Shown: positions 6,851 to 64,000 of the stretch, one piece after another
How the letters are laid out: each line of letters begins with the position of its first letter
Position numbering within the stretch: position 1 is the first letter of the stretch
NCBI GenBank assembly: GCA_964598265.1
Contig: CAZRBD010000001.1
Location: 1,590 to 65,589, forward strand
DNA length: 64,000 bases
Direction: 5' to 3'
Source: an uncultured archaeon
GTDB taxonomy: Archaea; Asgardarchaeota; Lokiarchaeia; Sigyniarchaeales; SOKP01
Made by a program: the position numbers and the translations under genes
The notes under the pieces: generated by a model
Told to the model about the DNA's origin: nothing
Database searches by the model: none
What the model saw: the letters and a program-made list of their open reading frames with translations, nothing else

Positions 6851-7621
6851 TTAAACAACGTAGTCTAAAATCTCTGATATATTGTTTATTTTGTGATAAT
6901 CGGTATTTTCAATTTCTTTTTCAAACGGAAATTTATATTTTCTCTCAAAAAGGATTGGCTGTATCTTAGTGCGCTGAGCACCTGAAATATCTGCATATTC
7001 ATCTCCGCACATGATTACAGATCTTGGGTCATTTCTTAACCCAAATTTATCAAGAACAAAATAAAATATGTCTGGATCTGGTTTTCTCTTTCCGAATTTA
7101 GCAGAAGTTAGTATAACATCAAAAAACTTGCTGAAATCATATTTATTAATAATATTTTTAATAGTTTTATGATTTGGGTGATTTGATAATAGTGCTACTT
7201 TGACATCTTTTAATGCTAATTTCTCTAACATTTCTTTAGTTTGGGCAAAGGGTATCCATCTATCCTCTTCACATGAATGATAAATATTAGCTAGGCTTCC
7301 ATATGTTGTGTCTATTAAGTTATCTAGGTTATTTATTACACCTTCTACCTTTAATGTTTCTAAAACATTTTAAAAGATTATTGAGGTTGGGAACTCCACT
7401 TTTGTTTTGATGCTTTTTCTGAAAAGATATTGCCTTTTTTTACTAAATTTTTGAAGAAAAGCTTCAATCGTTAATTTATCACTCCAAATTTGTTTTTCTT
7501 TTAAGAAATCAATAGATTTCATTAAACCTTGTTTAAAGCATTCATAATATCTCTCAACAGAAGGATCGTCAAAATAAAACAATGTGAACCCAAAATCAAA
7601 AATTACACCTTTTATCATCAA
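6851..7621 (-). pseudogene. HAD-superfamily hydrolase interrupted by a single in-frame TAA (7370-7372)
   Basis: ORFs 7370..7621 and 6851..7231 share one frame. The 46 codons between them are open and read '..NVLETLKVEGVINNLDNLIDTTYGSLANIYHSCEEDRWIPFAQTKE-MLEKLALKDVKVALLSN..'. HAD motifs present are 'IFDFGFT', 'LLSN' and 'K..KPDP..GDEYADISGA'. Confidence 0.7.
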
Positions 7622-19292: not shown

Positions 19293-21392
19293 ATGGATAA
19301 AATAATGGCGATAAATCCTCCAATTGTAGATTTGAACTCAATGGAAGCATTAATTGATGAGTTAAAGAATGCTACTGGGATGAAACTTGATCATTACCAA
19401 AGAAATTTCTTAGAAAAGCGAATTAATTTCAGAATGGAGCATTTAGGTATTGAAAATTACATAGATTATATTAATCTTATCCATTCGAGTCCTGTAGAGC
19501 GAGATTTGTTCCTAGATAAATTTACTATAAACTATACCTATTTTTTTAGAAATCTTACAGTTTTTCAGAATTTTGAGAAATTTATCCAATTTTATGTTAG
19601 GAAATTAGAAAAATCTAAAAAAATCATAAGAATTTGGTCGGCACCTTGTGCCACAGGTGATGAACCTTACTCTTTAGCAATGATATTGGATAATATTAAA
19701 AAAAAAAAAAAGATTTTTCCAGACTTTAAAATCTATGCCTCTGATATTGATACAAATGCTATTAAATTAGCCGTTGATGGTGAATATGGAGAATATGCTG
19801 TACATGAATTACCCGAACATTATTTAACAACTTACTTTACAAAAACAATTACTGAACTAGGACCTAAATACAAGATCAATGATCAGATTAAAAATAAAGT
19901 AGAATTCATTCAAGAAGATATTTTAAAAGGCTCTCATGTAAGTCAAAAGTATGATGTCATATTTTGTAGGAATTTTTTTATATATATTAACCAAAATGCT
20001 CGGGATCTTTTCTTAAAAATTATCGAAAACAGACTATATAATGGTGGTTTATTATGCATTGGTGGATCAGAAACATTAGCTCGTAAATATCATCATTTTA
20101 CTAGTGTTAACTTAAAAGATAGGTTCTATATTAAAGGTTATTTTGATAAAAATGAATCTTATAGAAATGGGATTGCTAAACTCTTAGGAGCTAAGAGAAT
20201 TACTAAAAAACACTCACCTTCAAGAAAAATTAAAAAACTTCTTAAAACAGAAAAGACGCGTGAAAAACCAAAAAGAGAAACGAAATTAATTGATGATATC
20301 AAGGAAATATTTGAAAGAAAAGAAATCAAGGAGGAAGTCCATGACATTCAAGGCAAAGAAAGAACGGAAGTTAAATTCACTAAAATTGTAGTAAATAATG
20401 GAACATTAGACGATAATATAAAACACACAACAGAGCCTTTAATAGTACCTACAGAAGAAGGGAAAACTTTATCATTAGAACATAGAGGAAAATCGTTAAA
20501 ACGTAGGGAATTATTACTACAGCAAAAAGAATTACATCTCGATGAGAAAATTAAATACATCGTTACTCAATCAAAATTCTTAGAAGGAGAAAGAGAGAAA
20601 ATTGATGAGCTCTCAGAAATTTTAAATAAAAAAGAAGAGGAAATAATTAACCGTACATTAGTTTTAGAACGTATTACAAGACAAACGGAACTAAAAGAAA
20701 GAAATGTGGCTCAAAGAGAGACTCAACTTGAAAAACGATTAAATTTAATAGAACAATACTCTAGACAAATGGTCGAACAAGAAAGACGTTTTTCTAATGA
20801 TTCTCGTAAATTTGCAGAGAATAATTCTAACGAAGATGAAATTAACTCCTTTGAGGAAAAAAGGATAGATCGAATTAAAACTCCGAACGAAAAAAACGAA
20901 TTAAATATTCCAAAAGGGTACTACAGCCTTATTAATTCCTTTGATAAAAATGAAAGATCTACTAAATTGACAATAAATGGATTAGGTTCGGGAATTGCCT
21001 TAGTTTTTAAAGATGCAATTAATAATATATTTGCCATGTCTCATATAACATTACCATCCTCAAGAGCTTCCAAACAGGGATATCATCTACTCTTTCCACA
21101 TACATTTGTAGATACATCAGTTCAAGATTTATATAATAACGTAATTTACAATGGAGGAAATAGGTCTAGTATCAAAGCTTTCATAGTTGGTGGTGCAAAA
21201 CTATTTTTAGACTATGATATGACTTATCAGGAGAATATTGATGCTATAAGAGAAGAATTAGCAGTACTTCAAATTGAGATTGAAGGCGAAGATATTGGAG
21301 GTTTAAGTGAAAGATCAATCAAATATGATACTATAAATGACGTTTTTTATGTAAAAAAAACCTGGGAATTTGAATATAGAAAAATAAAATAA
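19293..21392 (+). CDS. Fusion protein: CheR-type SAM methyltransferase, ~300-aa charged coiled coil, CheD-like domain
   Basis: CheR motifs 'IRIWSAPCATGDEPYSLAMIL' and 'IFCRNFFIYI'. CheD-like tail 'INGLGSGIALVF..IFAMSHITLP..AFIVGGAKLF..IEGEDIGGLSERS'. Confidence 0.7.
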   Translation: MDKIMAINPPIVDLNSMEALIDELKNATGMKLDHYQRNFLEKRINFRMEHLGIENYIDYINLIHSSPVERDLFLDKFTINYTYFFRNLTVFQNFEKFIQFYVRKLEKSKKIIRIWSAPCATGDEPYSLAMILDNIKKKKKIFPDFKIYASDIDTNAIKLAVDGEYGEYAVHELPEHYLTTYFTKTITELGPKYKINDQIKNKVEFIQEDILKGSHVSQKYDVIFCRNFFIYINQNARDLFLKIIENRLYNGGLLCIGGSETLARKYHHFTSVNLKDRFYIKGYFDKNESYRNGIAKLLGAKRITKKHSPSRKIKKLLKTEKTREKPKRETKLIDDIKEIFERKEIKEEVHDIQGKERTEVKFTKIVVNNGTLDDNIKHTTEPLIVPTEEGKTLSLEHRGKSLKRRELLLQQKELHLDEKIKYIVTQSKFLEGEREKIDELSEILNKKEEEIINRTLVLERITRQTELKERNVAQRETQLEKRLNLIEQYSRQMVEQERRFSNDSRKFAENNSNEDEINSFEEKRIDRIKTPNEKNELNIPKGYYSLINSFDKNERSTKLTINGLGSGIALVFKDAINNIFAMSHITLPSSRASKQGYHLLFPHTFVDTSVQDLYNNVIYNGGNRSSIKAFIVGGAKLFLDYDMTYQENIDAIREELAVLQIEIEGEDIGGLSERSIKYDTINDVFYVKKTWEFEYRKIK

Positions 21393-25473: not shown

Positions 25474-27339
25474 ATGAAAATTCTTTTAATTCACTCACAG
25501 GATGTAGAAGTTGTTAAAAATAAAGAAGCTACGAGTAATCCCCAAGAATTTAAAGATGATGTAATAAAATTGAAAGGTTTAATACTCGTCTGTTTTGTTT
25601 CCGTTGAAGATCAAGATACTTATGATACAGATTTAATTGCCAAACAAGGGGCTGAGGTAATTGAAGATGCAATACTTCAAATAACAAATTTCCCCGAAAG
25701 AGTAAGTGAGAAGAATGAAGAAATTAGAGATCATAATAAGAAGATCGAAGAAGGAAAGATTAAAGGTAAACAGAGGAAGCTTGTTGAATTAATCAAAGAC
25801 AGGAGCATATACCACGTTGACAAAATACTCGTTTATCCGTGGGCTCATTTAAGTAAATTTCTAAGTAATGAGTCAAATGCAATGGAAGTGTGCCCAAAAA
25901 TTGCAAATTTATTAGAAAAAAAAGGTATTGAAGCAAGATTTTCTCCTTTTGGTTGGTATAAGTCCTTTAAAATTAACTGTATAGGTCATGAAGTAGCTGA
26001 GATGTTTAGAGATGTAAAGTTGGGTATTAAACCAAAGGAACAAGTGAAAAACTCAGTCTTTAAAGTAATAACGCCTCAAGGGAAAGAGTTAAATATAAAA
26101 TGGGATGAAAATAAAAATATATTACCTCTGGAAGGTATACAAGACGAAAACTTCTTAGCCCTGTTGAAATCAGAATTGGGATCACGAAAGGTAGACAAGA
26201 ATATAGAACCTGCCCATATAAAAGTGATGAAAGAGTTTGAGCTTCTAGATTTTGATCCAAATTCCGATAAAGGCATTCTTCGTTGGTATACCAAGGGAAT
26301 GATAATGAAAAATCTTATCAAAAATTTCATAGAAGATAGAGTAATAGATTTTGGAGCTATACTTATTGAAACTCCAATTATGTACACTGTAAAAAATAAG
26401 AAATTAACTGCCCAAACTGCTCGATTTCCGGCACGGAGTTATTGGCTTGAATCCGGCAAAAACAGATTTCTGTTGAGATACGCAAGCGATTTTCTTCTAT
26501 TTGATTTATTTTCTCAAATGAGTTTAAAACCACAATATTTTCCTTTACGAGTTTATGAATTTGAGCAGTATGATTTTCGAAGAGAACAAGAAGGGGAATT
26601 ATCGGGATTAAGGAGGTTGCGTGGATTTATAATGCCCGATCTTCATACTCTCTGTAAAGATTTAGAATCTTCAATTGATGAATTTAAAAAGCAGTATAAA
26701 TTAATTAGGAGCCTAGAGGATGATTTAGGGATAAAGAGTTATTCTATTTTTAGAGCTACACAAAAATTTTATGAGGAAAATAGAGATTGGATTATTGATT
26801 TAATTAAAACTGAAAATCATCCTGCATTATTAGAATTATGGGAAGATAGATATTATTACTATGTTTTGAAATTTGAAAGAAATGTACTTTCTGCTCAAAA
26901 CAAGAGTGCTACACTAGCAACTAATCAAATTGATGTTGAAAGCTCCTTAGAATTCATGGTTGATAATGAAGGCAAGAAGAGGCAAAAGTACAATATTTCC
27001 TTTGTAGATACTGACGGTCAAATAAAATATCCTATTATTCTTCATAATTCTCCTACGGGGGGTTTAGAAAGAATAATATGGGGGTTAATCGAGTCAGCAG
27101 TTCGTAATAGAGAAAAATTGGTTCCGGGATTTAAAACATGGTTAAGTCCAATCCAAGTACGGATTATCACTATATCTGATGATCAAAATGAGTATGCTGA
27201 AAGATTATTAAATATTGTTAATGGAGAAGAATTCAGGGCAGATTGGGATGATCGTACAGAAACGGTTGGAAAGAAGATAAGACAAGCAGAAATAGAGAGG
27301 AAATCCTATACAATTATCATAGGAAAGGAAAAATTGTAA
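25474..27339 (+). CDS. thrS: Threonyl-tRNA synthetase, archaeal form with N-terminal editing domain; body up to the first in-frame stop
   Basis: 'MKILLIHS..' archaeal editing domain, a class II core ('FRREQEGELSGLRRLRGF', 'HNSPTGGLERI'), and the start of the anticodon-binding domain. Confidence 0.85.
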   Translation: MKILLIHSQDVEVVKNKEATSNPQEFKDDVIKLKGLILVCFVSVEDQDTYDTDLIAKQGAEVIEDAILQITNFPERVSEKNEEIRDHNKKIEEGKIKGKQRKLVELIKDRSIYHVDKILVYPWAHLSKFLSNESNAMEVCPKIANLLEKKGIEARFSPFGWYKSFKINCIGHEVAEMFRDVKLGIKPKEQVKNSVFKVITPQGKELNIKWDENKNILPLEGIQDENFLALLKSELGSRKVDKNIEPAHIKVMKEFELLDFDPNSDKGILRWYTKGMIMKNLIKNFIEDRVIDFGAILIETPIMYTVKNKKLTAQTARFPARSYWLESGKNRFLLRYASDFLLFDLFSQMSLKPQYFPLRVYEFEQYDFRREQEGELSGLRRLRGFIMPDLHTLCKDLESSIDEFKKQYKLIRSLEDDLGIKSYSIFRATQKFYEENRDWIIDLIKTENHPALLELWEDRYYYYVLKFERNVLSAQNKSATLATNQIDVESSLEFMVDNEGKKRQKYNISFVDTDGQIKYPIILHNSPTGGLERIIWGLIESAVRNREKLVPGFKTWLSPIQVRIITISDDQNEYAERLLNIVNGEEFRADWDDRTETVGKKIRQAEIERKSYTIIIGKEKL

Positions 27340-27354
27340 AATCAAACGATCTAG

Positions 27355-27534
27355 ATTAGAAAAAGAATGATTGATAAACCTATTGGATCAAAGAAACAGA
27401 CAGCTAAACAGAACAATGATGTAAATTTAGAAAAGTTATTTGAAATGTTAGAAGAAGACACAAGAAACTTTCCAAAATATAAATTACCAATCCCCTTTAG
27501 AAAATTCTCGACAAAAATTTACTTTCGAAGATGA
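27355..27534 (+). other. thrS: In-frame continuation of thrS after TAA (27337) and TAG (27352): conserved ThrRS C-terminal tail
   Basis: Same frame as thrS. It reads 'IRKRMIDKPIGS...LEKLFEMLEEDTRNFPKYKLPIPFRKFSTKIYFRR' and ends at TGA 27532-27534. Confidence 0.6.
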
Positions 27535-28198: not shown

Positions 28199-28735
28199 TT
28201 ATTCAACTAAATCCTTAAGGCATGCTCTTGCAATAAACTCAAACGCCTGCTCTACATTTAGTCCCGTTTTTGCTGATGTTTCCAAATAATTACAGCTCAA
28301 TTTCTTTGCCAAGTCTTCTGCCTCTGCTCTGTCAACTTCTCTCTCCAAATCCGCTTTATTCCCAAGAAGTATCATTGGAATAGTTTTCTTAACAGTTTTC
28401 TTTATTGAACTTATCCACCCTGGAATTTTGAGTAATGTTTGACTAGATGATAAATCAAACACACCAAGCGCAGCATTACTTCCCTTAAAGTAAATATTTC
28501 TAAGTTTATGAAATTGTGGTTGTCCTCCTATATCCCAAAGTAAAAGACGAACTGTTTTTCCATCAATATCCACATCTTTGATAAGGAAATTACTACCAAT
28601 AGTTTTTTTTAAATCCTCACCAAAATAATCTTTGATATATCGTAGTAATAAACTTGTCTTCCCCACTCCTCCAGGTCCAAACAAGGTTATCTTAAATTTA
28701 AACAACGAATTTGGCGACATTTTTAATCTCCTCAT
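28199..28735 (-). CDS. Ras/Rab-like small GTPase
   Basis: All five G boxes are present: 'GPGGVGKTS' (G1), T in 'KKTIGSNF' (G2), 'WDIGGQ' (G3), 'GNKADL' (G4) and 'ETSAK' (G5). There is no C-terminal prenylation box. Confidence 0.85.
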   Translation of the reverse strand: MRRLKMSPNSLFKFKITLFGPGGVGKTSLLLRYIKDYFGEDLKKTIGSNFLIKDVDIDGKTVRLLLWDIGGQPQFHKLRNIYFKGSNAALGVFDLSSSQTLLKIPGWISSIKKTVKKTIPMILLGNKADLEREVDRAEAEDLAKKLSCNYLETSAKTGLNVEQAFEFIARACLKDLVE

Positions 28736-39564: not shown

Positions 39565-40107
39565 TTAATAAGTCTGTAATATCTCGAAGACGGTGGCTCG
39601 GGTTTTTTTTTTCAAGATTTCTTTATTTGAATCATTTACTATTGTATAATCGGCATTTTTTATGAGCTTTTCAAGACCAAAATCAATTTCTCTTTCATCT
39701 CTCTCTTTTAATTCATAAAGATTTTTTGGATCATCATCACGGTTTCTTTTAAATAACCTTTCAAATCTCACCTCTTCATTTACTACAATAGCAATAATAG
39801 GAAACTTCCAAAATTTTCTAAAAATTTTCCCTTCAGCAATAGACCGAACGCCATCAACAAAAACGATATTTTGAGCTTTAGATTTTATTAATTCGACACA
39901 TTTTATAGCAATTATATCTGAACCACCTAGTTTTCGTAAGTCTTTGGCAATTTTACCTAAATTTTTTCCAGAATATTCTAGATTCCTTAATTTGGCTTCA
40001 TTTCGTACAACATCACCCATGGTTATAACATAACCTAAATCGCATATAGCGTTTATAGCTGTCGTTTTACCTGAACCAGGAAGTCCACAGATTGCTAGTA
40101 CTTTCAT
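39565..40107 (-). CDS. P-loop nucleotide kinase (archaeal UPF0200/dephospho-CoA-kinase-like)
   Basis: 'MKVLAICGLPGSGKTT' P-loop in a ~180-aa protein. Confidence 0.6.
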   Translation of the reverse strand: MKVLAICGLPGSGKTTAINAICDLGYVITMGDVVRNEAKLRNLEYSGKNLGKIAKDLRKLGGSDIIAIKCVELIKSKAQNIVFVDGVRSIAEGKIFRKFWKFPIIAIVVNEEVRFERLFKRNRDDDPKNLYELKERDEREIDFGLEKLIKNADYTIVNDSNKEILKKKTRATVFEILQTY

Positions 40108-40220
40108 ATTTAATGAAAAAATACATTGAATATAATTTATATATTTAGAATTTGTTTAGATTCTATATATAATAAGAAATTAACTTTTTTAATTATAAAA
40201 TAAAAAAAAATTTCAGCAAT

Positions 40221-41351
40221 TTGATGAAAAAAAATAAGAAAATTGACCCCTTTAATACACCAGCAGTGTTAACTCTAAAGGCATATAAGAGAATTATAGG
40301 ATATGCGAATAGATATGCAAATCAGAATTTAAATACATCTAAATGGCGCGAGGTATATGGGATCCTGATTGGAGCAATAGAAAATGACGAAAAGATTATT
40401 GTAAAGGATGCTATACCTATGGTTGTTGGAGATCGTGCTGGTGTTAAATATGAAAATAAACAATATGTAGATATGGCTCAAATAGATGCTTCAGTTTTTG
40501 AAAGATCAATACAAGATAATAAAAATGATTTTATTATTGGTTGGTTTCATACACACCCAGGATTTGGTTTTTTCTATTCCCCAATTGACTGTTTGACTCA
40601 ACTGGGATATCAACTCCCAAATCCTTATGCATTAGGGCTTGTTTTTGACCATTGTGAAAAAAAATCTGAGTCTCACTCTTTGGGAATCGCTGGATTACGA
40701 CTTAAAAATCCTGAAAGAGGAATTTCTTCAACATACGATCTAATAGAGTTAGAATATGAATTTGAACAAAATTTAATGAATAAGGAAGCAAAAGCCGTTA
40801 CTAAGAAAGTTGATAAAAATATTGAAAAGGTCCTGAAGGAATTAGAGTTTATAAGTGAAATTCTTCGGAAAAAAGCGTTAGCCCAATTACAGAGAAATTA
40901 TGGCCTTATTTTAGTACCTAAAGAAGATGTTATAATTACTCATAATGAAGCAGAAGCAAATGCAGATGAACGGTATTTATATGAATGGGATCCTGATTTT
41001 TTTAAAAAATCGTATCGTATTCCCAAATTTAGAGAAAAAATAGAAAAAATGATTTCGGCTGCTTATGATGAACTAGATGATTTAATTGGAAAGAAAGATG
41101 AAATAAAATTTAAAGTTAGGAAAGAAAGGCTCAAGAAAAAAATTAAAACGGTTTTAAAGAAACCCAATGAATGGTATGATAAATTAATTGATGATTTTTC
41201 AAAAAAAATTGATTTAATATATCCTTTTTATGATTATCTAGACACTACCGAAAGAAAAGTTATCGAACATTTTGAAGAGAGAAGTTCTGAATATTTTAAG
41301 GTTTTAAATGAATTAAATAAACGTATAAAATTAAATTTAAAGGATTATTGA
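40221..41351 (+). CDS. JAB1/MPN/Mov34 (JAMM) metalloprotease with ~200-aa helical C-terminal extension
   Basis: Exact JAMM motif HxHx7Sx2D in 'HTHPGFGFFYSPID', with an upstream Glu in 'REVYGILIG'. Confidence 0.75.
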   Translation: MMKKNKKIDPFNTPAVLTLKAYKRIIGYANRYANQNLNTSKWREVYGILIGAIENDEKIIVKDAIPMVVGDRAGVKYENKQYVDMAQIDASVFERSIQDNKNDFIIGWFHTHPGFGFFYSPIDCLTQLGYQLPNPYALGLVFDHCEKKSESHSLGIAGLRLKNPERGISSTYDLIELEYEFEQNLMNKEAKAVTKKVDKNIEKVLKELEFISEILRKKALAQLQRNYGLILVPKEDVIITHNEAEANADERYLYEWDPDFFKKSYRIPKFREKIEKMISAAYDELDDLIGKKDEIKFKVRKERLKKKIKTVLKKPNEWYDKLIDDFSKKIDLIYPFYDYLDTTERKVIEHFEERSSEYFKVLNELNKRIKLNLKDY

Positions 41352-51830: not shown

Positions 51831-52023
51831 GTCTTATTCAGCTCAACTTTATTAAAAGTTAAATTCGAATTTTTCGATGAAAATTATTAATACCAATATT
51901 ACAATTAAAAAAAATGAAATAATTTATATTTACCCATTTCGAAAGGTAGAGATTTAATTTATGTGTTAATTAAACTACTATTAGGACAAATTTGAATTTA
52001 ATTTCAAACTTCAAGAAGTCATT

Positions 52024-52633: not shown

Positions 52634-53029
52634 TTACCAAGTTTCTACTTGCACTTTATGAACTTTTTCATAGTGTTTAATGTTTCGTGTTATTAATTTA
52701 ATATCCTTTTCAATAGCGATCGAAGCAATAAAAATATCTAATTCATTAATTAATTCCTCCTTTCTTTTTAGGCTTGCTCTAATTTCACCATAAATCTTCC
52801 CGTCAATAATATCAAAGGGATATATTACCAACTTAGACAGTAATTTATTAACTGCATTTATATTTTCTTCTTTACTTTCCGAGAGATATGCTCCAAAATA
52901 TAATTCAGCAACATTAATGGAAGATGTTGACAATAACTGATAGCTTTCAAGTAGTCTAGAAATTTCCTTCTTCGCATCCTCGTCATTTCTTAAGAATTGT
53001 ATAAGAATATCTGTATCTAAAAGAACCAT
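52634..53029 (-). CDS. vapC: PIN-domain toxin VapC
   Basis: 'MVLLDTDILIQFL' first acidic motif and a later 'D' in 'ELDIFIASIA..ITRN'. Size 131 aa. Confidence 0.75.
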   Translation of the reverse strand: MVLLDTDILIQFLRNDEDAKKEISRLLESYQLLSTSSINVAELYFGAYLSESKEENINAVNKLLSKLVIYPFDIIDGKIYGEIRASLKRKEELINELDIFIASIAIEKDIKLITRNIKHYEKVHKVQVETW

Positions 53030-53262
53030 TATAATTCAACCCTTCGGATTTGTGAGTTTTTTCGATTTTCATATATTATCTTTAAAAGCTTATCTGATTC
53101 AACTTTTGAACCTTGCCAAGATCCTGCTAACTCAAGGATTTCCTTTTGAGCTGGTTCTGATGTTAATCGAAGAATTAAATCATTAAATGATTCTTTTTTC
53201 CGTTTTTTACGTTTAAGCGCATTATACGCCTCGTCTGAAACGGAAATTGTTTTATAACCCAT
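53029..53262 (-). CDS. vapB: VapB-type antitoxin (RHH-like)
   Basis: 77 aa with a 1-nt overlap on vapC. The N-terminus 'KTISVSDEAYNALKRKK' is strand-helix-like. Confidence 0.55.
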   Translation of the reverse strand: MGYKTISVSDEAYNALKRKKRKKESFNDLILRLTSEPAQKEILELAGSWQGSKVESDKLLKIIYENRKNSQIRRVEL

Positions 53263-53818: not shown

Positions 53819-55519
53819 GTGAAAAATATGGCACAATTAGGTGGAACGCCCATTTTAATAATGAGAGAAGGTACAGAGAGAACGCGTGGTAGAGATGCTA
53901 TGTCAAATAACATCGCTGCTGCGATTGTCATTGCTGAAGCTATAAGAACATCACTTGGACCGCGTGGAATGGATAAAATGCTTGTAGACCAATTTGGAGA
54001 CGTCGTTATTACTAACGATGGAGCTACAATCTTAAAAGAAATTGATGTACAACATCCGGCCGCTAAAATGATGGTCGAAGTAGCTAAAACTCAAGATTCC
54101 GAAGTTGGTGATGGTACAACAACCTCTGTTATTCTTGCTGGTGAATTATTAAAACGAGCTAAAAAACTGATTGAACAAAAAATACATCCAACAGTAATTA
54201 CCGAAGGATTTCGAAAAGCCGCTGAAAAGGCTATTGAAATACTCGAAAATATCTCAGTAAAAAGCGGTATTGATGATGAGAAAGGTTTACGTAATGCTGG
54301 AATGACTTGTATGTCATCTAAAATTGTCTCAGAATCAAAAGAAATACTTGCTCAATTATGCATGGAGGCTATTAAAGCAGTCGCTGAAAAAAATGATGAA
54401 GGTGATTGGGTCGCTGATATTGATAAAGTTCAAATCCAAAAGAAAGCAGGTGAAGGTATCGATGATACCAGCTTAATAAAAGGTATTATCCTCGATAAAG
54501 AAGTCGTTAGCCCTGGAATGCCAAAATCAATAAAAAATGCGAAGATTCTACTCTTGCAAAGCGCTGTTGAAATCGAAAAGACTGAATTTGACGCTAAACT
54601 TCAAATTACCAGTCCAGAACAAATTCAACAATTTCTTGATGAAGAAGAGAAAATGTTAAGAAATATGGTCGAAAAAATTCAAAACTCCGGAGCAAATGTA
54701 TTAATCTGCCAGAAAGGAATAGATGATATGGCTCAACACTTTCTTTCTAAAACGGGAATTATGGCGATTAGACGTGTTAAAAAATCTGATATCGAAAAAC
54801 TCGCTAAAGCTACTGGTGCTGCAATCTTTACTAATCTTGATGATGTTACCACTGAAAAACTTGGATGGGCAGGATTGGTTGAAGAACGCAAAATTATGAA
54901 CGATTCTTGGATTTTCATTGAAGAGTGTAAAGATCCAAAAGCGGTTGTCATTTTTATTCGAGGAGGGACTGACCTTATTGTTGATGAAGTCGAAAGAGCA
55001 ATTCATGATACCTTATGCGTTATAAGAGATATCGTTGAAGATCAGAAAATCGTGGGCGGTGGTGGTGCTCCAGAAATGGAAGCTGCTATCCAATTGCGAA
55101 AATATGCCTCTACCCTAGGGGGACGTGAACAACTCGCTGTAGAAATTTTCGCCGATTCGCTCGATATAATCCCAAAAACCTTGGCTGAAAATGCAGGTCT
55201 TGACCAAATTGACTCACTCATGAAATTAAGAGCTTCCCATCAACAGGGAAATGTTTTTGCTGGTCAGGATTTAGAATCTGATTTAATTATTGTTGATATG
55301 ATGGCAGTTGGGGTAGTCGAACCCACAGTTGTCAAAATTCAAGCAATTAAAAGTGCTACTGAAGCTGCTTCAATGATTTTACGGATTGATGATGTTATCG
55401 CTGCTGCACGATCTGCTGGACCGCCTGGAGGTATGCCACCAGGTGGAATGGGCGGTGGAATGCCGGGGATGGGTGGAATGGGCGGTGGAATGACCCAAGG
55501 CATGAGCGATATGATGTAG
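53819..55519 (+). CDS. ths: Thermosome subunit (group II chaperonin)
   Basis: 'GPRGMDKML', 'ITNDGATIL', 'VGDGTTT' and a C-terminal GGM repeat tail. The likely start is ATG 53828. Confidence 0.95.
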
Positions 55520-62254: not shown

Positions 62255-64000
62255 ATGGCTAATTTTCTGGATTCTTCTGAGTTTCTGTTATTTTATTTTG
62301 TTTTAAACATTGTTATTATAATCCTAAATACATTATTCTTAATATCTCGGAAGAGAGAGAATTCAGTAAATAAGTTAAAATTCCTGATTATCTTTTTATT
62401 AGGGACTTCGATAATTATCTTTGGTTTCACTTCATTTCCGTATCTAATAGCTACTTCAGATTCACTAAGATCTTCAGATCAAGTACTCATGGATACTATT
62501 TTTCTCTTTTTGCTATGTTTTTCTACAGTATTCTTTATTTATTCAGTACATCACTCTGATGACGATATTGTAGAATTAAAAAAGCCCTCCTTTTTTAAAG
62601 CCCGGAAAGGAAAGATAAAGATAGGAAGAATCGTTAAAGAAGGAAGAAAGAAAGGTAAGTTTTTCCTATCTCTAGAAGATCTCGAGAAACATATGTTTGT
62701 TTGCGGTGCAACAGGTACAGGTAAGAGTAATTTCCTTCAAAATTTCTTAATAAACATAACAAAAAGTTATAAGATTCCTTTCCTTCTGGCAGAATTCAAG
62801 GGAGAATATCAATTTTTGCAGAGAAAAATCATTGATTTGATGATAATAAGACCGGGAGAGAATTTTTCAATAAATATATTCAATCCTGGAGATACTCTTC
62901 CGGAAATTCACGCAGAGAGGATATTTGATATCTTGAAGAGTGGTAAATTCTTAGATGATAATGCCGAGTTCTCTCCGCAGATGGAAAAAGTTTTAGTAGA
63001 GATATTAACAAAAGTCTGTAAAAATAAGGAATTTCAAAGCTGGCAAGGATTCTATAAGTATTGTAAAGGGTATGCAAAGAATAAGAGAGCTGAAATTCCA
63101 ATGTTAAGTCAAACACTCATCAGTATCACAAATAGGATAAGAAGATTTTCCTTGGGGCCCTTAAAAGCGATATTTGGTACGGAACACAAAATTAAAACAG
63201 AAAATCTTTTCGATAGAAATATATTAATTGATTTAAGTTCCATTATCCGTTTAGGGGGAGAAAAAGAGGATGCTCTATTTTTTCTTAACATGGTATTGAA
63301 ATATCTATGGGATAAAAACCTTACACGAGGTGCATATAACTTCCAAGGGATTAAGCACATTACAATTGTTGAAGATGCTCAATATTTTGCTCCAAAAGAC
63401 CTTACAAAAAAAAACAAGTTAACATCGTATTTAGAAGACATAGCTCTCCTTCAAAGAGGTACAGGTGAATGTTTGATTTCTTTAGCAACTCATCCTGATA
63501 TTAGTGAAGAGATTTTGGCAAATTGTGGTGTTTTAGTATGCTTTAAGACTCATATAGATAAAGAATTTCTCTGTAAATTATTAAATGTAGATGGGGAGAA
63601 TGAAGAATATTTATCAATTTTAGAAAAAGGGCAATGTATTGTTAGAGTAAATTCAATTAAGAGGCCATTTCTACTTGATGTTCCATATATTCAAAGAGAA
63701 TGGTTAAAAAGCACAGAAATCAATGAAACTAATCGGAGAGTTTTAGATAAGTTTGAAAAAGCAAAAATGGAGAGGGGAGATAAAATTACACATCATTCAG
63801 AAAATAGTGGCAGTTATTTAAATACATTAAAAAATAAGATTGTGAGAGTTATGAGAATGAGAAATAAACATAAAAAAGAAAGAATGGATTCAAACTCGGA
63901 CTTTGATTTTGAAGATGAATATTTGGACTCAGTAAAGAAGGAATTTCAAAATGTTAAGTCTTTAGAAGTTTCTTCTGATTCGGAAGGATTATTTGAAAAT
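62255..64000 (+). CDS. Membrane-anchored HerA/VirB4/FtsK-superfamily P-loop ATPase (3' partial, runs off the window)
   Basis: My translation from ATG 62255 gives 582 open codons. It has 3-4 N-terminal TM helices, Walker A 'VCGATGTGKSNF' and Walker B 'HITIVEDAQYF'. It is absent from the ORF track because no stop falls within the window. Confidence 0.7.
   Translation, partial: MANFLDSSEFLLFYFVLNIVIIILNTLFLISRKRENSVNKLKFLIIFLLGTSIIIFGFTSFPYLIATSDSLRSSDQVLMDTIFLFLLCFSTVFFIYSVHHSDDDIVELKKPSFFKARKGKIKIGRIVKEGRKKGKFFLSLEDLEKHMFVCGATGTGKSNFLQNFLINITKSYKIPFLLAEFKGEYQFLQRKIIDLMIIRPGENFSINIFNPGDTLPEIHAERIFDILKSGKFLDDNAEFSPQMEKVLVEILTKVCKNKEFQSWQGFYKYCKGYAKNKRAEIPMLSQTLISITNRIRRFSLGPLKAIFGTEHKIKTENLFDRNILIDLSSIIRLGGEKEDALFFLNMVLKYLWDKNLTRGAYNFQGIKHITIVEDAQYFAPKDLTKKNKLTSYLEDIALLQRGTGECLISLATHPDISEEILANCGVLVCFKTHIDKEFLCKLLNVDGENEEYLSILEKGQCIVRVNSIKRPFLLDVPYIQREWLKSTEINETNRRVLDKFEKAKMERGDKITHHSENSGSYLNTLKNKIVRVMRMRNKHKKERMDSNSDFDFEDEYLDSVKKEFQNVKSLEVSSDSEGLFEN

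Follow-up and report, generated by a model that had tools for sequence, protein, structure and literature searches.

In several known systems, an in-frame stop codon is decoded: methanogens and certain Asgard lineages insert pyrrolysine at TAG, selenocysteine is inserted at TGA, and some genetic codes have a reassigned stop. Archaeal aminoacyl-tRNA synthetases can also be split, as are the AlaRS of Nanoarchaeum and the crenarchaeal threonyl-tRNA synthetase (ThrRS). For the latter, Korencic and colleagues are said to have described in 2004 a natural division of the Crenarchaeota ThrRS into separate catalytic and editing proteins. The thrS gene of the window (the whole stretch of 64,000 nucleotides that was analyzed) recalls both situations, as its two stops precede a conserved in-frame coding sequence, like those of recoded genes, and as it leaves an archaeal ThrRS in more than one ORF, like the crenarchaeal enzyme. 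It also shares with a unitary pseudogene of the same window, a HAD-family gene, the presence of in-frame stops upstream of a frame that is still homologous to full-length relatives. The likeness that we favor is with the local consensus or assembly errors of metagenome-assembled genomes (MAG): the lesion sits on one contig and is contradicted by other assemblies of the same population, it spans about one short-read length (116 bp), it is made of substitutions only, it is blind to selection and it falls in an essential single-copy gene. It is unlike such errors in its density (11 changes in thrS) and in its partly 4-nt-periodic spacing, both of which are unusual. The features concerned are the following:

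25474..27534, plus strand: full-length thrS frame, 686 codons plus TGA, from Pfam, NF003068 and homolog length
25474..27339, plus strand: 621-aa ORF of the window as it stands, ending ...IIIGKEKL-TAA and exactly equal to P0125
27298..27413, plus strand: private patch, 11 substitutions in 116 bp, from the comparison with L001 and L002
27337..27339, plus strand: first in-frame stop, TAA, from GAA (Glu622); GAA in all near-identical assemblies
27352..27354, plus strand: second in-frame stop, TAG, from TCG (Ser627); TCG in all near-identical assemblies
27355..27534, plus strand: stranded thrS 3' end, residues 628-686, with the last two beta-strands, the terminal helix and the conserved tail NFPKYKLPIPFRKFSTKIYFRR
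7621-6851, minus strand: HAD-family gene with an in-frame TAA (7370-7372), present in all six other assemblies covering it

The gene encodes an archaeal-type threonine--tRNA ligase (NF003068 / PRK03991), as seen from both its score and its domain order. The intact allele P0001, from which the window's frame differs solely at 8 patch codons, reaches 571.9 bits against NF003068 (cut-off 484), with a match that extends from residue 106 to 682 and covers profile positions 63-610 of 613. The Pfam domains come in the order N-terminal archaeal editing domain (PF08915), class II core (PF00587, residues 323-540) and anticodon-binding domain (HGTP_anticodon, PF03129, residues 561-661), and this last one runs across both stops. 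The preliminary description had the ThrRS ORF ending ...IIIGKEKL at TAA 27337-27339, and the same frame continuing through NQTI and TAG 27352-27354 into IRKRMIDKPIGSKK...KIYFRR up to TGA 27532-27534, all of which we find in the sequence. It had also likened the read-through sequence to the end of the anticodon-binding domain and to the usual tail of archaeal ThrRS, and this homology holds: the 59 codons after the TAG belong to ThrRS according to Pfam, to the PDB ThrRS alignments, which continue through both stops, to NF003068, whose match goes on to residue 682, and to the read-through length of 686 aa, which is the exact length of 125 of the 129 family members. In the family alignment, this tail carries the invariant residues P667, K670, P672, P674, R676, S679, F684 and R685. 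In the C-terminal part, an AF2 model places strands at 626-631 and 644-650 and a helix at 652-663, with a block-mean pLDDT of 60-92 over 621-660 and of 59 for 661-670; in the catalytic core it is of low quality (pLDDT <50, residues 237-393), and we draw no active-site conclusion from it. As for the zinc triad (Cys, His, His), both His align (DLH391 and ILH524) in the HMMER alignments, and the zinc Cys of S. aureus corresponds to Asp339, a residue invariant in the family, in a segment without Cys where the alignment is weak and the AF2 core poor. Finally, the ATG at 27367, 12 nt after the TAG, opens a mechanical ORF of 55 aa.

The state of this gene in closely related DNA could be followed in several assemblies. 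ENA scaffold_236 and Logan SRR8482198_4997 are 99.91-99.95% identical to the window over 22 kb and 13.5 kb. Against L001 and L002, the window has 12 differences in 22,061 bp, 11 of which lie within 27298-27413, and both comparison assemblies agree with one another at all 12 positions. They also bear out the earlier claim that the thrS lesions are substitutions and not indels. The other assemblies from the same sediment population, which match the window at 99.9% identity or more where they overlap it, encode an intact 686-aa ThrRS. The more distant strain L021 (LAZR01004063, 96.7% identical) has the intact state at 10 of the 11 patch sites, over the stretch 27297-27396, and it is for this reason that the states found in the window are read as derived; the eleventh site, I647, is intact in the L021 protein P0122, with no Asn there in 129 aligned sequences. 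These assembled sequences show the patch to be private to the window's record and derived. At the protein level, the truncated P0125 is the sole truncated member of the 11 in its 90% cluster, and the protein-cluster tables place it on just one NCBI contig, 112,130 bp long, while the 10 other members are 686 aa long and come from ENA, Logan, JGI and NCBI. A scan of genome contigs yielded neither thrS allele, and exact-product look-ups had no entry for the window's TruD variant. The broken allele is not reproduced in independent data, as the ENA, Logan, JGI and LAZR assemblies are all intact.

Within the patch, the amino acid changes are W609R, I610K (2 nt), P611S, K619E, E620K, E622stop, S627stop and I647N, in addition to synonymous changes at P636 and K640, so that the window differs from the intact sister allele by two nonsense and six missense codons. 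These changes disregard coding constraint and fit random, unselected substitution: when 11 random substitutions are simulated in the ancestral patch, 8-9 codons are usually changed (8 are observed), and two or more stops appear in 14-23% of the trials. Non-synonymous and synonymous changes stand at 9:2 in the patch and at 5:12 among the private coding differences outside it (Fisher p=0.018); transitions and transversions, at 4:7 in the patch and 12:8 in the rest of the private differences, show no significant contrast (p=0.27). The ancestral bases at the 11 sites are T (four), A (three), G (two) and C (two). Only 2 of the 11 changes are of the deamination type (C>T, G>A), and only 2 others, precisely those that make the stops, are of the 8-oxoG type (G>T, C>A).

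In the wider family, the ancestral residues of the patch are invariant or close to it. W609, E620 and S627 are each found in 129/129 aligned sequences and P611 in 128/129, and the residues that the window has at the patch sites are absent from all 129 homologs. Column 622 is more variable (E, Q, D, N, T, A, S, G or L), although it is never a stop in these 129 sequences; the codons found there in relatives are GAA, GAG, GAT, CAA and GCT, and the codon at 627 is TCT, TCA or TCG in 17 related genomes. No in-frame stop is present at 622 or 627 in the near-identical assemblies, in any of the 129 family members or in the 17 GTDB relatives read. The gene was found in 21 related genomes and is single-copy in all of them, and the 19 copies that reach the C-terminus are all intact. 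Within the window, there is no second thrS and no thrS fragment.

The same record carries other private clusters. One of them, at the C-terminus of the thermosome gene (55493-55509), turns PPGMGG into TQGMSD with an exact 4-nt spacing, and it is likewise selection-blind. The window's thermosome variant clusters with P0282, but the latter is an unrelated fragment of 51 aa that brings no independent support. In three private clusters taken together, 12 of the 17 gaps are divisible by 4 (p~1e-4, a nominal value, since the period was noticed after the data had been seen, and no concrete mechanism is attached to it), versus only 6/70 and 3/41 for natural strain differences; the L021 control shows the codon period, with 39 of 70 gaps being multiples of 3. 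To our knowledge, there is no mutational process with a 4-base period. The private variants of the thermosome, of TruD and of a 634-aa protein are all confined to the same 112-kb contig, and this second private cluster with a 4-base spacing suggests a record-specific artefact. Other private clusters look natural: that of 63022-63079 has 9 of its 11 changes at third-codon positions and 2 amino acid changes, and that of 2435-2446 has three synonymous changes and one missense. Because of these natural-looking clusters, the window's record is taken to be a somewhat distinct haplotype.

Several ways of producing such a patch were tried and rejected. An import from a functional relative, through recombination or cross-species mis-assembly, does not agree with the fact that R609, K610, S611, K620 and the stops are found in 0/129 homologs. 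Gene conversion or template switching within the window was rejected because the mutated sequence has exact matches of at most 10-11 nt elsewhere in the window, which we take as chance level, and because the patch mutations improve no repeat there, direct or inverted. No single DNA-damage process fits the 11 changes. Illumina phasing errors, in which the derived base equals the preceding one, fit 5 of the 11, which is not expected to be above chance in AT-rich DNA. A bit-flip in 2-bit-packed data was considered for the 4-nt periodicity; the five thermosome changes all clear bits, but those of thrS are mixed, which does not support this model.

Two of the readings listed in the preliminary description make the stops functional. 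A programmed readthrough or recoding, in which TAA and/or TAG would be decoded by a suppressor tRNA, a pyrrolysine-like system or a variant code to give the 686-aa enzyme, is in accordance with a frame that is open and homologous past both stops, and with the in-frame TAA of the HAD gene. It is nevertheless extremely improbable: the stops occur in no ortholog, whether in the assemblies at least 99.9% identical, the 129 homologs or the 19 related genomes; two different stop codons replace two different residues, a Glu and an invariant Ser; and W609R, P611S and E620K, at invariant sites, are left unexplained. A genome-wide reassignment was rejected as well, as the window is dense in intact ORFs and each of the three stops serves as a terminator there, the 46 long ORFs ending with TAA (31), TGA (9) or TAG (6) at normal lengths, and no split gene was recognized among the window's ORFs besides thrS and HAD. 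As to the decoding machinery, none is visible in the window, in which the sole tRNA is a tRNA-Arg(GCG), with no suppressor, Pyl or Sec tRNA, no recoding RNA element and no other Rfam match. The HAD gene does have its TAA at 7370-7372 on the minus strand, as had been reported, but it does not make a parallel case pointing to a genome-wide phenomenon, since this single TAA is common to the six other assemblies, whereas the thrS stops lie in a dense patch of one record; to judge from these assemblies, the HAD TAA is a separate, genuine lesion, fixed in the population. A functional truncated or split ThrRS, with residues 1-621 acting alone or in non-covalent association with the 55-aa peptide starting at ATG 27367, could draw on the position of this ORF right after the TAG and on the archaeal precedents, yet it is very improbable too. 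The crenarchaeal split separates whole domains and is conserved across lineages, whereas the break in the window interrupts the beta-sheet of the anticodon-binding domain instead of falling between domains (AF2), is unique to one record and kept in no relative, and is accompanied by damaging missense changes of invariant residues just upstream; besides, the 621-aa and 55-aa products are both missing from the gene-position look-up, and the protein collection records the 621-aa form from a single source contig only. Recoding, readthrough and a split enzyme can practically be dismissed. A targeted diversification of the thrS 3' end, by a diversity-generating retroelement (DGR) or by gene conversion, is as hard to credit as recoding: the patch, of about 100 bp near the gene's 3' end, is reminiscent of a DGR variable region, but its changes are not adenine-specific and have a mixed spectrum, no template copy is found in the window and no reverse transcriptase among the called genes of the syntenic loci, neither the strains nor the family vary in this region, and the target is a housekeeping enzyme.

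This leaves the two other options of the preliminary description, a consensus error and a very recent pseudogene, of which we favor the former. We infer that the thrS stops are probably a local consensus error in one record, with a technical cause, rather than a real mutation. The gene would be an ordinary single-copy archaeal-type ThrRS, from a deep-sea sediment Asgard archaeon of the Loki type (Promethearchaeota), and its true product would be the 686-aa protein terminating at TGA 27532-27534. The 116-bp patch, with both stops, is confined to the one public record from which the window was cut, and would have arisen at consensus building, through an error of local assembly, polishing or data handling, being absent from the organism. 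Against this artefact stand the natural-looking private variation of the same record and the difficulty of obtaining an 11-error path from random sequencing errors, unless the local coverage was about one read, as De Bruijn-graph assemblers normally require read support for each k-mer. These two points speak in turn for a real, very recent inactivating allele, in which a single clustered-mutation event, such as an error-prone repair-synthesis shower over ~100 nt or a conversion from a degenerate donor, would have destroyed the thrS 3' end in one lineage or in a minor subpopulation that the assembler chanced upon, the cell using a second ThrRS or the allele being a dead end, e.g., relic DNA in the sediment. 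The gene indeed has disabling lesions and is otherwise intact in relatives, the haplotype is made of substitutions without indels, and the HAD gene shows that a fixed nonsense lesion exists in the population. We nevertheless hold a real allele to be unlikely: 11 changes in 116 bp versus 1 in the other 22 kb would need a local error rate of ~10% in one event, thrS is essential and single-copy in the related genomes, the window holds no donor copy, none of the other assemblies from this sediment system has the allele, and neither the 4-nt spacing nor a second selection-blind cluster in the essential thermosome gene is expected biologically. It is more doubtful still that the patch is real in the precise sense of ~10% substitutions over ~116 nt, without indels, caught before selection removed the allele; if true, these slow-growing sediment archaea would have a pathway of short-patch DNA synthesis that is highly prone to error, with a similar event at the thermosome tail.

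The thrS stops are thus most likely not a real biological feature or, at most, a very fresh dead allele. If the patch were real, it would record a mutation shower of unusual density in an essential gene, which no present evidence requires, and the record-specific clusters with a 4-base spacing may be of interest to the curators of the assembly. The chief value of this case is one of caution, as an apparent signal of recoding in an Asgard archaeon vanishes upon comparison with near-identical assemblies: when in-frame stops are found in a single metagenome-assembled record, sister assemblies or reads should be checked before claiming readthrough, a change of code or the loss of an essential gene.

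The preliminary description had reported two in-frame stops in the gene for threonyl-tRNA synthetase (ThrRS), thrS, followed by an open frame with a possible restart codon, and all of these elements are indeed present:

25474-27339, plus strand: thrS reading frame as it stands, 621 aa, ending ...YTIIIGKEKL at TAA
27337-27339, plus strand: first in-frame stop, TAA, thrS codon 622
27352-27354, plus strand: second in-frame stop, TAG, thrS codon 627, after NQTI
27532-27534, plus strand: TGA closing the frame after the TAG, which reads IRKRMIDKPIGSKK...NFPKYKLPIPFRKFSTKIYFRR
27367, plus strand: ATG in the tail, same frame, downstream of the TAG

Three domains are recognised in the read-through product: an archaeal ThrRS editing domain (PF08915), a class II core (PF00587) and an HGTP anticodon-binding domain (Pfam), whose match (residues 561-661, positions 1-93 of the 94 in the profile) spans both stops. 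When aligned by HMMER with bacterial ThrRS of solved structure, 'GKEKLxNQTIxIRKR' lies opposite 'GDKEVESGKVAVRTRR'. In a protein search, the best 120 of hundreds of relatives were 685-717 aa long, nearly all of them exactly 686 aa, which is the read-through length and the exact length of 125 of the 129 aligned family members. Against the archaeal-type ThrRS equivalog NCBIfam NF003068 (cut-off 484), the intact sister allele P0001 attains 571.9 bits, with a match up to residue 682 (profile position 610 of 613). The tail is thus the usual archaeal ThrRS C-terminus, and the ThrRS homology that had been proposed for the residues beyond the stops is confirmed.

Where the source gives a name, the relatives are threonine--tRNA ligases of Promethearchaeota, Lokiarchaeota or related Asgard MAGs. 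The GTPase genes fit the Asgard (Promethearchaeota) origin to which these homologs point. Other genes of the window include:

28199-28735, minus strand: small Arf/Ras/Roc-family GTPase gene, with relatives in locus L015 (12170-12700)
24739-25350: translin
19293-21392: CheR-CheD fusion
about 52634-53260: VapBC pair

An AF2 model of ThrRS is poor in the catalytic core (pLDDT below 50 for residues 237-393), but the anticodon-binding domain is for the greater part modelled confidently, with 10-residue block means of 71-92 over 561-630, then 60, 80, 89 and 59 over 631-670. According to the model, residues 612-616, 626-631 and 644-650 form beta-strands and residues 652-663 a helix, so a stop at codon 622 would remove two strands, the terminal helix and a strongly conserved tail, in which P667, K670, P672, P674, R676, S679, F684 and R685 are invariant in the family alignment. 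Within the core, at 26479-26511 (residues ~336-346, RYASDFLLFDL), the zinc-binding Cys of bacterial ThrRS aligns by HMMER with a family-invariant Asp, D339; the segment is devoid of Cys, and the two His ligands, H391 and H524, are apparently kept. This may reflect a variant metal site or merely a weak alignment in this poorly modelled core.

P0001, which is free of stops, matches the read-through product at 99% identity. Its coding DNA was taken from two sources, the ENA assembly ERZ23486238 (on the 126-kb scaffold_236) and Logan's assembly of SRR8482198. Over 22,061 and 13,540 aligned bases, respectively, the same 12 window positions differ from both assemblies and there are no indels, in agreement with the earlier statement that the lesions are substitutions; 11 of the 12 fall inside 27298-27413.

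Substitutions of the thrS patch (intact to window state)
27298: TGG to AGG, W609R
27302-27303: ATT to AAA, I610K
27304: CCC to TCC, P611S
27328: AAA to GAA, K619E
27331: GAA to AAA, E620K
27337: GAA to TAA, E622stop
27353: TCG to TAG, S627stop
27381: CCA to CCT, synonymous
27393: AAA to AAG, synonymous
27413: ATC to AAC, I647N

The window's states are derived, since the more distant strain LAZR01004063.1 (marine-sediment metagenome, 96.7% identical over thrS) has the intact state at 10 of the 11 sites (27297-27396 read). The eleventh, I647, is intact in its protein, P0122, and Asn is found at 647 in none of the 129 members. In this family, W609, E620 and S627 are invariant, P611 is kept in 128/129 and I610 in 124/129, and none of the 129 has a derived residue of the window at its position. 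thrS occurs once per genome in 21 related GTDB species-representative MAGs, and the 19 copies that reach the C-terminus are all free of internal stops; in the 17 MAGs where the EIEW motif was located, codon 627 is TCN throughout, and codon 622 is one of GAA, GAG, GAT, CAA and GCT.

The broken allele is also private to one record. A public protein identical to the 621-aa ORF, P0125, comes from one NCBI contig (112,130 bp); in its 90% cluster of 11 it is the sole truncated member, the remaining 10 (ENA, Logan, JGI, NCBI) being 686 aa long. The other private protein variants of the window (thermosome, TruD and a 634-aa protein) come from this same contig. The related samples derive from sediment cored close to the Loki's Castle vent field (BioProject PRJNA504765; PMC6401483). 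Comparison with 23 additional loci (ENA, Logan and NCBI assemblies), which together cover nearly the whole window, showed that the window-private differences are few and clustered.

Window-private differences
2435-2446: 4 differences
27298-27413 (thrS): 11 differences
51866-51867: 2 differences
55493-55509: 5 differences, at the 3' end (C-terminus) of the thermosome gene (53828-55519, plus strand)
63022-63079: 11 differences, in a DUF87/HerA-like gene that runs past the window end
9570, 33407, 48926: singletons
about 40135: 4-nt indel, intergenic (40107-40221)

At the last site, 4 bases (TATT-like, in an AT-rich run) present in two other assemblies are missing from the window; none of the remaining private differences is an indel.

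Random placement of 11 substitutions in the ancestral patch (117 nt) most commonly altered 8 or 9 codons (8 are observed). At least two stops arose in 14% of the simulated patches under a uniform spectrum and in 23% when the spectrum was AT-biased, owing to the many AAA and GAA codons in the patch. The non-synonymous to synonymous ratio is 9:2 in the patch versus 5:12 for private coding differences elsewhere (Fisher p=0.018). In contrast, cluster 63022-63079 also has 11 private substitutions, in 58 bp, but 9 are at third-codon positions and just two amino acids are altered, both conservatively (E/Q, Q/D), so that it resembles DNA imported naturally, by recombination, from a related strain that has not been sampled. 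Taken together, the thrS patch behaves like unselected noise.

The five thermosome substitutions, of which four are non-synonymous, follow one another at intervals of exactly 4 nt and convert the C-terminal tail ...GGGMPPGMGGMM of three other independent assemblies into one found only on the NCBI contig with the broken thrS. When the gaps separating adjacent differences are counted together for the 2435, thrS and thermosome clusters, 12 of the 17 prove to be multiples of 4 (binomial p≈1e-4, nominal, as the test was chosen after the data were seen). Among gaps between natural strain differences, multiples of 4 number 6/70 and 3/41, and the control with the 96.7%-identical strain, mostly within thrS, shows a codon period instead (39/70 gaps are multiples of 3). 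The thermosome changes are compatible with a simple 2-bit-packing model, those of thrS are not. No biological cause is evident for a 4-base period; we suspect a processing artefact of this one record, and the period strengthens the case for such a technical origin.

The in-frame TAA that had been noted in a HAD gene is also present:

7621-6851, minus strand: HAD-family hydrolase gene, with one in-frame TAA (7372-7370) after codon 83

Pfam HAD domains span this stop, and its homologs are single proteins of ~250-260 aa, aligned from about residue 88 on. Unlike the thrS stops, it is identical in all six other assemblies covering the site, each of which calls two genes (82 and 126 aa); it is thus a genuine, population-wide nonsense lesion, and the gene is either a pseudogene or split. 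The lesion has no relation to the thrS patch and does not argue for recoding.

Four options had been left for thrS, and two are kept. Recoding or readthrough is excluded: the stops are not conserved, they replace two different ancestral codons, and invariant residues are damaged alongside them. Moreover, all three stops are in normal use in the 46 long ORFs of the window (TAA 31, TGA 9, TAG 6), its sole tRNA is Arg-GCG, and only thrS and HAD were recognised as split. A split or truncated functional ThrRS is unlikely, as the break would fall within a beta-sheet, invariant residues just upstream are changed too and relatives have no similar arrangement. DGR activity or gene conversion at the 3' end finds no support, the substitution spectrum being mixed, with no template copy in the window and no RT among the genes called in the syntenic loci.

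A real, very recent clustered mutation that made a dead allele would agree with the natural-looking private variation of the same record and with the read support that graph assemblers usually require. It is nevertheless rather unlikely, since it needs a ~10% local error rate in a single event, in an essential and single-copy gene of which the window holds no second copy, and none of the other assemblies from this sediment system contains the allele. thrS carries no programmed feature, and we favour a consensus error over this dead allele as the probable origin of its stops.
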